Source: Dehalococcoidia bacterium (lineage in GTDB: Bacteria > Chloroflexota > Dehalococcoidia > Bin125). From it: 64,000 bases of DNA. The translations under genes were made by a program, and so were the position numbers. The DNA lies in assembly GCA_963663895.2 (NCBI GenBank), contig CAXXRD010000001.1, positions 576,001 through 640,000 on the forward strand. The letters are read 5' to 3'. This document shows positions 6,960 through 15,893 of the stretch, in pieces. Numbering within the stretch: the first letter of the stretch is position 1; each line of letters opens with the position of its first letter. The notes beneath the pieces were generated by a model that saw only the letters and a program-made list of their open reading frames with translations, had not been told where the DNA came from and searched no databases.

Positions 6960-8702
6960 ATACGCACCTATTACGACATCCAGCTCGGTGAGCGCCGCGT
7001 GGAGGCGCGGGCGCTTCGCGGCGAGGCGATCGTGCAGGCGGGGCGCTACCTCATTGCAAAGACGCTGCTCGGAATGGGAGTGGCGGGCGTCGACCCGTTG
7101 TCCCCCGAGAACCCACTGATCTTCTCGGCGGGCCCGTTCGCCGGGACCGCCTTCTCCAACGCGAACCGCACAAGCGTGGGCTGCAAGAGCCCGCTCACGG
7201 GTGGGATCAAGGAAGCGAATGGGGGCGGTACCTTCGCCTACGCACTCGGGCAGCTAAGGATCTGCGGATTGACCCTGCTCGGGGCATCTCCGGATTGGGT
7301 CGTACTGCGGCTGACCAAGGACGGCGGTGTCGAGTTCCACGAGGCGGCGCCATACGTCGGCAAGGGCAACTTTGAGGCGGCCGATCTGCTGCTGGAACGC
7401 TACGGCAAGAGAGTCGCGATCGCGCTCTGCGGCCCCGTGGGGGAGTACCAGGGTCTCCTGGCAGGCGTAGCGTTCACGGACAAGGACCGCCGTCCGGCGC
7501 GGCTGGCGGCGCGGGGCGGGGTGGGCGCGGTGATGGGATCCAAGAAAGTGAAGGCGATCGTCGTGGACATGGACCGCCCGCCTCCGTTCGAGGAGCCCAA
7601 GAAAGTCCAAGCCAGCATTAAGGACTACGCCGGGAAGCTACAGGCCGACGAGATCATTCAGAACACGTACGCGCCCTTGGGCACCATGTCGATGGCCGAC
7701 CTCCAGAACACCGTGGGAGGACTGCCGGTGCGCAACTTCAGCGCAGGACAGCTGGCCAACGTCTCGGCTGGGGAGACGTTCAAGATGGGCGCCGACTACA
7801 TCGCCCCGCTCAACACGTCGCGGGGCGGATCGCAGACCCACGCCTGTATGCCAGGCTGCATCATCCGCTGCAGCAACGTGTATCACGACGCCAACGGCAA
7901 GGAAGTCGTCTCGCCGGTGGAGTACGAGACCTTGGGGCTCCTCGGATCGAATTGCGGAATCAGCGATCCTGACGAACTTGCGGAGCTGAATGCGATCGCG
8001 AACGACTTGGGTATCGACACGATCGAGACCGGTGCGACCTTGGCCGTCCTGATGGAGGCGGGGGTCGGCGCATTCGGCGACGCGGCTTTCATGCGCGACT
8101 GCCTGACGGAGATCCGCCAAGGCAGCGAGCAGGGACGCCGCTGGGCGCAGGGAACGGCGCGCGTGGGGGCGCACTACGGGGTGCGCCGGGTGCCGGTGAT
8201 CAAGCGACAAGCGATGAGCGCCTACGACCCGCGGGTGGTCGAGGCGACCGGCGTCGCGATGATGGCGACGGCGCAGGGAGCAGACCACACCGTCGGCAAC
8301 TTGGCACGGCTGAACACGTTCGAACTGGACAACGCGTCGCTGATAGAGCAAAGCCTGACCCAACAGCGGAAGGTGGCGGCGACGGACTCCTTGGGCCTCT
8401 GCGTCTTTGGTCAGAGCGTGACTAACGTCAACCTGGAGTTCTTGGTGAGCGCGTTGAACGCCGCCCACGGAACCGAACTCGGTGAGGAATTTTTCGAAGC
8501 ACTGGGAGATGCAACGCTCCGGTTGGAGCACGCGTTCAACCGCGAAGCCGGCTTCACGGAACAGGACGACGAGCTGCCGGCGTTCTTTTACGATGAGCCG
8601 CTGCCGCCCACCGGTCGAGTGGCTCGCTTCCACGCGGGTGACCTGCGGGGGATGTACGAGCGCCCGGCGCCCATAGCAGCGAAAGCCGAAGACCATGGTT
8701 AA
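6960..8702 (+). CDS. Aldehyde:ferredoxin oxidoreductase (tungsten/molybdopterin AOR family); probable ATA start
   Basis: KSPLTGGIKEANGGG, AARGGVGAVMGSKKVKAI, CMPGCIIRC, EYET, NDLGIDTIE motifs; in-frame (M)RTYYDIQL extension upstream of the GTG at 6999. Confidence 0.9.
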   Translation: MRTYYDIQLGERRVEARALRGEAIVQAGRYLIAKTLLGMGVAGVDPLSPENPLIFSAGPFAGTAFSNANRTSVGCKSPLTGGIKEANGGGTFAYALGQLRICGLTLLGASPDWVVLRLTKDGGVEFHEAAPYVGKGNFEAADLLLERYGKRVAIALCGPVGEYQGLLAGVAFTDKDRRPARLAARGGVGAVMGSKKVKAIVVDMDRPPPFEEPKKVQASIKDYAGKLQADEIIQNTYAPLGTMSMADLQNTVGGLPVRNFSAGQLANVSAGETFKMGADYIAPLNTSRGGSQTHACMPGCIIRCSNVYHDANGKEVVSPVEYETLGLLGSNCGISDPDELAELNAIANDLGIDTIETGATLAVLMEAGVGAFGDAAFMRDCLTEIRQGSEQGRRWAQGTARVGAHYGVRRVPVIKRQAMSAYDPRVVEATGVAMMATAQGADHTVGNLARLNTFELDNASLIEQSLTQQRKVAATDSLGLCVFGQSVTNVNLEFLVSALNAAHGTELGEEFFEALGDATLRLEHAFNREAGFTEQDDELPAFFYDEPLPPTGRVARFHAGDLRGMYERPAPIAAKAEDHG

Positions 8703-13684: not shown

Positions 13685-14200
13685 GTTCCTTCCCGGTTCC
13701 GGAGACCCCTCGACTACTCCGGCGCGTCCTCGCCAGCGAGTAGCCGTTCCGTGGACGTGAAGGGGACGGCGGCCAGGCACATGGCGTCGGGATGGCATTC
13801 TAACCAGACGCTTGAGTCGTGCGGAAAGAGTATGGGCGTAGGGCGCACGCAGCCAAATTCCTCGGGGGCAGGATAGCTTAGTGGGCTGCTGTGCTATGAG
13901 CGGCGAAGAGGTTTCGGCGTCCCATTCGGTTACTGGTCCCACGTTGGGGCCATCTGCAGCCGACCTGATCAGGAAGAGGCAACAGGAGGCGCTTGGACTC
14001 AATCTGGCAGGCTTCAGAACACGACGGGCCACGTGAAAGTTCGGAGTACAGTACGCGAGGTCCGACTAGGATCGTCACGAGGACTGCACCTCCGCAGCGA
14101 GCGGAAACGGATTGCTTCGGTCCGATCCCAGGCACTGCCGCAGCAGTAACGGGCTCCCCTTCAATCCTCTCCACCGCATCCCTGCCGGCAGGCGGAGGCT

Positions 14201-14815
14201 CTAGTTTCTCGCTTGCGCCGCGAGCGCGCGGAGAAGGGCGAGGAACTCTTCGGCTGTCGAGAGGGGGACGCGTACGCCGTTCACCAGCACGAAGGGGGTC
14301 GAAGCGATGCCCAAGCGGCGCGCCTCCTCGACCCCCGCCATCAGGGCATCCTGATGGGTCCGCGAGTCCAGGCAGTCCGAGAACCGATCCAGGTCCAAGC
14401 CGGCGGCTCGCGCAGCGCCGTCCAGCTCCGCGCTCGACAGCCCCTGCGCCTGCCGCTCGAAGAGCGCATCGTGGTACGGGAAGAAGGCGTCTTGATCGGC
14501 CGCGCACTCGGCGGCGAGCGCCGCCGCCTCGCTCGCCGGGCCCAGGTGCGGGAAATGCCGGAAGGTGAAGCGGGCGATCCCCGTCTGCACGAACTCATCC
14601 TCAAAGGGCGGCTCAAACTGAGTCGCGAACACCCGGCAGCCGGGTCACTGGAAATCGCCCCAGTGCACCACGTGGAGCGGCGCCTCCGCGAACCCGAGCG
14701 TGTTGCGCTCGGTTGGGATAGCGGCCGGCGCCTCGCTCTCGGTCCCGCCATTGCATGCCGCCGCCAGCAGGCAGGCCAGCAGCAGCGCCCCCAAAGCCAG
14801 CCGTCGTCGCCCCAC
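14201..14815 (-). CDS. DsbA/thioredoxin-fold lipoprotein, probable selenoprotein (UxxC; Sec at TGA 14645-14647)
   Basis: GGGAGG RBS then GTG; MGRRRLALGALLLACLLAAAC lipobox; LGFAEAPLHVVHWGDFQ-TGA-PGC; FRHFP, AAECAADQ and GIASTPFVLVNG (cis-Pro loop) in the same frame; 204 aa with readthrough. Confidence 0.85.
14608..14644 (-). promoter_or_regulatory. Candidate bacterial SECIS element
   Basis: Directly 3' of the UGA: CCCGG-CUG-CCGGG hairpin, then GCG-A-CUCA-GUU-UGAG-C-CGC stem-loop whose apical loop starts with G 26 nt after the UGA. Confidence 0.55.
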
Positions 14816-14945
14816 CGTTTCCTCCCGCTCACCCGCACCCTACCATCACCACCGCGGCCGCCGCCTCGATCGGCGGCCGGCGCGCCGGCGGACGCTGCTA
14901 GCATCAGGGCCTGAAGGCAGCGCCAGCAGGCAGAACGGTCGGAAG

Positions 14946-15893
14946 ATGGACGCGCCGTCCCTGTCCCAGACCTACCGCGCAATCTTGACGATCCGGCGCT
15001 TCGAGGAGCGTCTGCTCTCCCTTCACCACGAGGGCCTGATTCAGGGCTCGATGCACCTGTGCAACGGCCAAGAGGCTATCCCCGTGGGCGCCTGCCGTGA
15101 GTTGCGCGCCGACGACGCCCTGACCGCGACATACCGCGGGCACGGCTGGGCGATCGCGCGCGGCCTGCCTCTGCCCGATCTGTTCGCCGAGCTCATGGGC
15201 CGGGCTTCCCCGCTGTGCGGCGGCCGGGGCGGCTCCGCCTATCTGTGCGGCGCGCCGTACGGTTTCCTGGGCGAAAACTCGATCGTCGGCGCCGGCGTGC
15301 CCATCGCCGTCGGCGCCGCCCTGGCGGCACGGCGCGACGGCGACGGCGCGGTCAGCCTCGTCTCGATCGGCGACGGCGCCCTCAACCAAGGGGCGGTCGG
15401 CGAAGCCCTCAACTTCGCCGCCGTGCTAGCGCTGCCGCTCGTCGTCGTGGTCGAGAACAACGTCTACTCGGAGATGACCCCGATTAAGGAGATGGTCGCG
15501 ATCGACCCACTGGCGCAGCGGGCGGCCGGGTTCGGCATTCCCAGCGTCACCGTGGACGGCAACGACGCGGCCGTCGTCCAAGCCGCCGTGGCCGAGGCCG
15601 TGGCGCGAGCCCGGAGCGGCGAGGGGCCGACCTTGGTGGAAGCGATGACCGAGCGCCTCGTCGGGCACTACACCGGCGACGCGCAGCAGTACCGGCCCGC
15701 CGGGGAGGTGGAAGCAGCCAAGACCCGCGAGCCGTTGACCCGGCTGCGGGCGGCGGCGGGGCAGGAGCTCGGCACGGAGCTGGCGGCCGTTGACGAGGAG
15801 GTGGAGGCGGCGATCGAAGGCGCCGTCCAAGAGGCGATGCGCTACCCTCGCCCCGACCCCGCCGGGGCCGCTCTGGGCGTCTATGTCGACTAA
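14946..15893 (+). CDS. TPP-dependent dehydrogenase E1 alpha subunit (acetoin/pyruvate DH-like)
   Basis: GSMHLCNGQEA, YRGHG, GDGA..ENN TPP-binding motif, RLVGHY. Confidence 0.93.
   Translation: MDAPSLSQTYRAILTIRRFEERLLSLHHEGLIQGSMHLCNGQEAIPVGACRELRADDALTATYRGHGWAIARGLPLPDLFAELMGRASPLCGGRGGSAYLCGAPYGFLGENSIVGAGVPIAVGAALAARRDGDGAVSLVSIGDGALNQGAVGEALNFAAVLALPLVVVVENNVYSEMTPIKEMVAIDPLAQRAAGFGIPSVTVDGNDAAVVQAAVAEAVARARSGEGPTLVEAMTERLVGHYTGDAQQYRPAGEVEAAKTREPLTRLRAAAGQELGTELAAVDEEVEAAIEGAVQEAMRYPRPDPAGAALGVYVD

Follow-up and report, generated by a model that had tools for sequence, protein, structure and literature searches.

The window, by which we mean the whole 64,000-nucleotide stretch of DNA that was analysed, carries on its reverse strand a single frame of 204 codons from 14815 to 14201 once the TGA at 14647-14645 is read through. 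Standard ORF calling splits this frame in two, into pieces of 143 aa (14201..14632) and 56 aa (14645..14815), and the five closest database proteins (P0002-P0006, 77-97% identical) are 129-143 aa long and start past the TGA, which bears out the expectation of an earlier sequence-only reading that standard annotation would miss or truncate the gene. At its other end the frame reaches just 8 codons further upstream than the GTG at 14815, none of which is a start codon, so that this GTG is the earliest possible start. The Shine-Dalgarno position is kept as (A/G)GGAGGAAACGGTG in the window's own genome (G000) and in two congeneric genomes (G001 and G002), with G002 diverging further upstream. All of the elements that the sequence-only reading had named, namely a ribosome-binding site, the GTG, a lipoprotein signal, the TGA and a hairpin, were found in place, and their coordinates are collected with those of related features in Table 1.

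Profile searches revealed that Pfam Thioredoxin_4 (PF13462) covers residues 39-195 across the TGA (E = 7.7e-31; 108 bits vs a gathering cut-off of 23.2), and that DSBA (PF01323) reaches 44.5 bits (cut-off 25.6) over residues 99-184 only, with the active site outside the match. A scan of 13900-15100 for promoters and terminators found none. The neighbours in the window are metabolic genes with no relation to the target (divergent E1 dehydrogenase alpha/beta, DUF1697, an alpha/beta hydrolase and an SSF transporter), and this neighbourhood holds no known redox partner gene near the target. Elsewhere in the window, an aldehyde:ferredoxin oxidoreductase-type gene (AFOR_N + AFOR_C) occupies 6999-8702 (+) and is followed by a luciferase-like monooxygenase.

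Table 1. Features of the target gene and positions of tandem arrays in related genomes. Positions without a genome label are those of the window.
Feature	Position	Strand	Details
Predicted selenoprotein coding sequence	14201..14815	-	204 codons plus TAG stop; GTG start 14815-14813
Shine-Dalgarno-like GGGAGG	14821..14826	-	5-nt spacer to GTG
Probable lipoprotein signal peptide	14753..14815	-	M/V-GRRR, hydrophobic core, LLAAA, Cys21
Cys21 (lipobox) codon	14755-14753
N-terminus through Cys21			V-GRRR-LALGALLLACLLAAA-C21, then short linker
In-frame TGA, codon 57	14645..14647	-	predicted selenocysteine, attacking residue of U-P-G-C redox motif
TGC, Cys60	14636..14638	-	resolving cysteine of UxxC
Active-site stretch			...LHVVHWGDFQ-U57-PG-C60-RVF...
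Tryptic peptide across residue 57			NTLGFAEAPLHVVHWGDFQ-U-PGCR
SECIS-type hairpin	14608..14626	-	GCGACUCA-GUU-UGAGCCGC; 7/8 pairs, one A·C mismatch, loop 14618-14616
Thioredoxin_4 / DsbA-like catalytic domain	14231..14701	-	residues 39-195
cis-Pro-loop residues T173-P174	14299-14294
TAG stop codon	14203-14201
Tandem array, locus L053	G013:C1:419826-427543
Tandem array, locus L052	G018:C1:772170-775103
Tandem array, locus L055	G014:C15:37478-41404

Conservation of the in-frame TGA

The two congeneric genomes have TGA at the same codon, in orthologues whose full 201-204 residues are 89% and 82% identical to the target. When 61 genomes, made up of the source genome and 60 relatives, were searched in six frames, 33 gave matches, and nearly all of the matches from the same family had exactly one TGA. 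When the 41 genomes of the same taxonomic family were searched with the NCBIfam model NF041057, matches were obtained in 28, and exactly one in-frame TGA was present in 104 of the 106 matches, the two with zero TGA both lying in genome G013. That relatives would share the TGA had been expected from the sequence alone, and the orthologues and some hundred members of the family do indeed carry it. Redox motifs in loci L013-L042 numbered 63 (57 with TGA and 6 with TGC or TGT), and in every one of them this codon is the U/C of [FY]x-(U/C)-xx-C. The CxxC of full-length cysteine homologues from other lineages aligns exactly on U57 and C60, which agrees with the earlier placement of the TGA at the nucleophilic cysteine, and at least 90% of the sequences in alignment A4 have Cys60.

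Contigs assembled from 4 runs belonging to 4 studies span 14645-14647 with no listed difference there. Their differences are confined to 14209, 14369, 14406, 14630 and 14679, the one at 14630 being a synonymous GTG to GTC change. The sequence-only reading had named TGC or TGT in reads as evidence that would count against it, and these independent assemblies show TGA. The stretch 14150-14900 was present in at least 20 runs from 11 studies among the matches listed, with labels that include sponge, coral and marine metagenomes; none of these listed runs is an RNA run.

We also evaluated substitution rates on either side of the TGA, which gave dN/dS of 0.22-0.32 downstream for three orthologues and of 0.32 and 0.50 upstream for the two more diverged orthologue pairs. 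The closest orthologue pair had an upstream dN/dS of 1.39, but from only 9 changes in the signal-peptide and linker region. Both parts therefore behave as coding sequence, and the ratios indicate that purifying selection acts on both halves of the gene. Judged from these sequence comparisons, the TGA is no lesion.

The selenocysteine machinery and the downstream hairpin

The source genome (2.37 Mb in 5 contigs, 91% complete) encodes selA (404 bits), selB (327 bits plus the C-terminal part), selD (359 bits) and a tRNA-Sec with anticodon UCA, as had been predicted from the target gene. The selD gene, at G000:C2:564495-565427 (+) in locus L010, has its own in-frame TGA (...LALCGG-U-ASKYG), so that selenophosphate synthetase is presumably a selenoprotein here as well. 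TGA is not generally reassigned in this genome, because it ends 239 of 670 long high-GC3 ORFs. Co-occurrence of gene and machinery within the family was considered as a further line of evidence and set aside as uninformative, with SelA present in 41 of 41 genomes and the protein in 28 of 41.

The hairpin of the target begins 18 nt past the TGA, spans 19 nt and presents its loop G 26 nt past the UGA. Folding of the 68 nt past the UGA gave z = -0.04, with 94 of 200 shuffled sequences folding as well, and the 31-nt hairpin segment gave -7.1 kcal/mol and z = -0.91, which 32 of 200 shuffles matched. This is the weakest hairpin in the family (family mean -13.8 kcal/mol), and its value is about equal to the mean of the same segment in the cysteine-codon homologues (-6.7 kcal/mol). 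By these folding measures the target hairpin, taken by itself, is indistinguishable from shuffled sequence, and the support for it is wholly comparative.

That comparative support comes from alignment A2, in which 55 distinct sequences are anchored on the TGA and a consensus hairpin GCGGCUCA-GGU-UGAGCCGC pairs nt 22-29 with nt 33-40, counted from the U of UGA. In this helix 90% of cells are paired, and the whole tested structure, including a weak first helix, is 72% paired vs 31-42% when the 3' partners are slid. Four of the 8 pairs in the helix show double changes, among them U-A to C-G, seen five times, a change that also alters the encoded amino acids. At least 6 of the 8 pairs form in the fixed register in 54 of the 57 TGA genes (8 pairs in 33, 7 in 19 and 6 in 2), and all 54 loops have G first (GGU in 25, GGC in 16, GUU in 8 and GUC in 5), vs none of the 6 cysteine-codon homologues with at least 6 pairs. 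The target and its two orthologues have an identical 19-nt element, GCGACUCA-GUU-UGAGCCGC, in the same register as the family hairpin. Across the whole source genome, only the target and a paralogue at ~525415 match the pattern of TGA plus this hairpin. The SECIS-like hairpin of the sequence-only reading thus stands as to its conserved position and G-first loop, and the strength credited to the target's own fold was overstated, being at chance level when taken alone.

The three exceptions among the 57 genes are those of locus L039, from another taxonomic family. In this locus, which lies in genome G056 of the same class, the three UxxC genes stand in tandem and have a G+C-rich hairpin, GGGCC..UGGU..GGCCC, about 3 nt nearer the UGA, which may be a lineage-specific SECIS variant. 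RNAalifold returned no consensus structure on all 55 rows of A2 and just 4 pairs when run without the three rows from L039, and Rfam gave no relevant match, only two chance-level matches to frameshift sites (E = 2.7 and 9.4). A second hairpin, formed by CCCGG and CCGGG around the TGC codon directly after the UGA, was dropped, with 43.6% of cells paired and no conservation.

Our preferred reading, to which we give a probability of roughly 0.88, is that the gene is intact and encodes an exported, probably lipid-anchored thiol-disulfide oxidoreductase of the DsbA type (Thioredoxin_4) with a predicted selenocysteine at the first active-site cysteine. The mRNA hairpin 18 nt past the UGA would recruit SelB-GTP-Sec-tRNA(Sec), and the ribosome would insert selenocysteine with no termination. 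If the TGA did terminate translation, the locus would be either a pseudogene, that is, a CxxC gene with a nonsense mutation, or the source of a 143-aa C-terminal fragment from the GTG at 14632. Gene callers give exactly such pieces (P0002-P0006, 129-143 aa) and the target hairpin is thermodynamically unremarkable, yet three species and 104 of the 106 matches in the family share this TGA, purifying selection is indicated on either side of it, the hairpin is identical to the nucleotide in the orthologues, the genome holds the full selenocysteine machinery, and the 143-aa fragment has neither signal peptide nor redox motif. We consider termination highly improbable on this evidence. Near-cognate decoding of UGA does occur at a low level in bacteria, and the codon could in principle be read without selenium, either by near-cognate Trp or Cys insertion or through general reassignment of TGA. 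Nothing specific speaks in favour of such decoding, and against it stand the 239 of 670 long ORFs that end in TGA, the identity of the sole anticodon-UCA tRNA as tRNA-Sec, and the location of the UGA at the catalytic nucleophile with a dedicated hairpin only in the TGA forms, which together make it an exceedingly improbable explanation. We infer that selenocysteine is inserted at codon 57.

Fold, export and direction of catalysis

The AlphaFold2 model, built from a 28-sequence alignment, has a mean pLDDT of 91.6. In it the signal peptide forms an N-terminal helix (residues 4-21), which is followed by a disordered linker and by a thioredoxin fold that bears a helical insertion. Foldseek placed Corynebacterium diphtheriae TsdA/DsbA (7unn, 4pwo) and Bacillus subtilis BdbD (3eu3/3eu4) at the top of the PDB matches with TM 0.74-0.77, followed by DsbA of Wolbachia, Chlamydia, Mycobacterium and Staphylococcus and by ScsC proteins, and a sequence search returned the same top entries at E = 8e-18 to 3e-16. 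In alignment A1 every sequence has P174 and at least 90% have T173, which fits a cis-Pro loop.

The three orthologues show no variation in the RRR n-region, the hydrophobic core or LLAAAC, and the genome encodes Lgt and LspA. An upstream lipobox was found in 43 of 57 family members with a relaxed pattern and in 19 of 57 with a strict one, and many of these are plainly classical, such as ...LLAAC-SSS and ...LLAAC-GGG. The lipobox of the target, LAAAC, has Ala at position -3, not Leu, Val or Ile. Given the motif in the orthologues, the presence of Lgt and LspA, the lipobox patterns of the family and the name of the closest NCBIfam family, the target is probably a lipoprotein, by a pattern-level match. 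The protein would be exported by its signal peptide, lipidated and cleaved at Cys21 by Lgt and LspA, and left with its catalytic domain tethered by a short linker at the outer face of the cytoplasmic membrane.

At this location, the U57 selenolate would attack disulfides or thiols of substrates to give a mixed selenenylsulfide, which Cys60 would resolve by forming an intramolecular Se-S bond. The protein could act as a classical oxidase, that is, as the DsbA of this lineage, introducing disulfides into exported proteins and being re-oxidised by a membrane partner. Its closest solved structures, the disulfide-forming C. diphtheriae DsbA/TsdA and B. subtilis BdbD, favour such a role, as does a DsbA-like Thioredoxin_4 domain with a cis-Pro loop, and BdbD works with the DsbB homologue BdbC. 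However, searches of the 41 family genomes, 35 of them at least 90% complete, detected neither DsbB (PF02600) nor VKOR (PF07884), with control genomes giving the expected matches, and these results lend no support to a classical DsbA-DsbB or DsbA-VKOR oxidative pathway. An Se-S bond is also usually harder to reduce than S-S, and the selenocysteine form would on such general grounds be expected to be a poorer oxidant, so that we regard the classical oxidase as possible but doubtful. The window's genome encodes a CcdA/DsbD-type membrane protein, and this, together with the searches that found no DsbB or VKOR, leads us to lean slightly towards a reductase or isomerase role, or non-canonical re-oxidation, rather than a DsbB-coupled oxidase. 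The combination of no detectable DsbB or VKOR with many predicted selenocysteine-containing DsbA-like paralogues raises the question of how these enzymes are recycled. One speculative answer, which we think unlikely, is that selenocysteine permits extracytoplasmic disulfide chemistry without DsbB or VKOR, with the selenol re-oxidised for example by O2, peroxide or small disulfides and with the paralogues splitting the substrates among them.

Paralogues and known relatives

A second UxxC Thioredoxin_4 gene lies outside the window in the same genome, at G000:C1:524978-525673 (-) in locus L048/L054. This paralogue has the motif FQ-U-GAC, is 42% identical to the target, scores 132 bits against NF041057, and carries the consensus hairpin core CGGCUCAGGUUGAGCCG at G000:C1:~525415. 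Within this Chloroflexota family, predicted selenocysteine-containing DsbA-like lipoproteins occur in 2-6 copies per genome and often in tandem. The tandem arrays of Table 1 consist of 4-6 UxxC DsbA-like genes per genome, each gene with its own TGA and hairpin, and a DUF885 (PF05960) gene adjoins the arrays in G013, G018 and G014, with no such neighbour in the window's genome. In loci L016, L017, L018, L026, L031, L033 and L034, the second gene of the array is a paralogue with an extra conserved N-terminal segment (...MLPGLDVLWRWDG.RWQPY...FIVETGD.LWIG...) before the UxxC domain. Other paralogues have long acidic or Gln-rich linkers past the lipobox, the shortest linker being that of the target. 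We found no literature on an expansion of such genes in Chloroflexota, which weakly suggests that none has been published.

The target and about a hundred family relatives are miscalled publicly as 129-143-aa fragments that contain neither signal peptide nor active site, which presumably leads to underestimates of the selenoproteomes of these Chloroflexota and of their redox capacities. With 57 TGA genes vs 6 cysteine-codon genes, one hairpin and a fixed offset, the family would also offer a very clean natural data set on SECIS recognition.

The best and only NCBIfam match of the target is NF041057, 'Rcas_1661 family thioredoxin-like (seleno)lipoprotein', which gives 115.8 bits with the protein and 106.7 bits when searched in six frames. 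As the curated cut-off of 190, reached by none of the 106 matches in the 41 family genomes, lies above these scores, the target is a relative (sister group) of that family and not an equivalog-level member. The two have in common the UxxC motif, the thioredoxin-like fold and the lipoprotein signal, which is at pattern level in the target. We take the prefix 'Rcas' to denote Roseiflexus castenholzii, and to judge by that prefix they would also have a Chloroflexota origin in common.

The sequence-only reading had appealed to DsbA-like selenoproteins as a known kind, and 'DsbA-like' and 'DsbG-like' UxxC families are indeed catalogued, NF041057 among them. The portion of a 2026 review that was available (PMC13188914) lists NF041057 among the selenoprotein families under the name 'DsbG-like protein', gives its motif as UxxC, lists a 'DsbA-like protein form 1' (PF01323, UxxC), and in that portion makes no mention of 'Chloroflex', 'lipoprotein' or 'paralog'. 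Excerpts of other papers report UxxC 'DsbA-like' selenoproteins in the Sargasso Sea metagenome (9 sequences, COG2761; PMC1088965) and from a few genomes (PMC1794560). UxxC DsbA/DsbG-like selenoproteins are an established class, and the target represents a well-supported subgroup of it beside NF041057.

Compared with the 'DsbA-like' form 1, as far as the available text describes it, the target is similar in having selenocysteine (predicted) first in UxxC, a domain of the DsbA type and, downstream, a hairpin whose small apical loop contains G. It differs in that its best fit is PF13462 and that PF01323 covers residues 99-184 only, and the same text makes no mention of form 1 being a lipoprotein. 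The structurally closest proteins, C. diphtheriae DsbA/TsdA and B. subtilis BdbD, share with the target a CxxC-type motif, the helical insertion and the cis-Pro loop, and match it at TM 0.74-0.77 with 25-28% identity, the difference being that they have cysteine where the target has a predicted selenocysteine.
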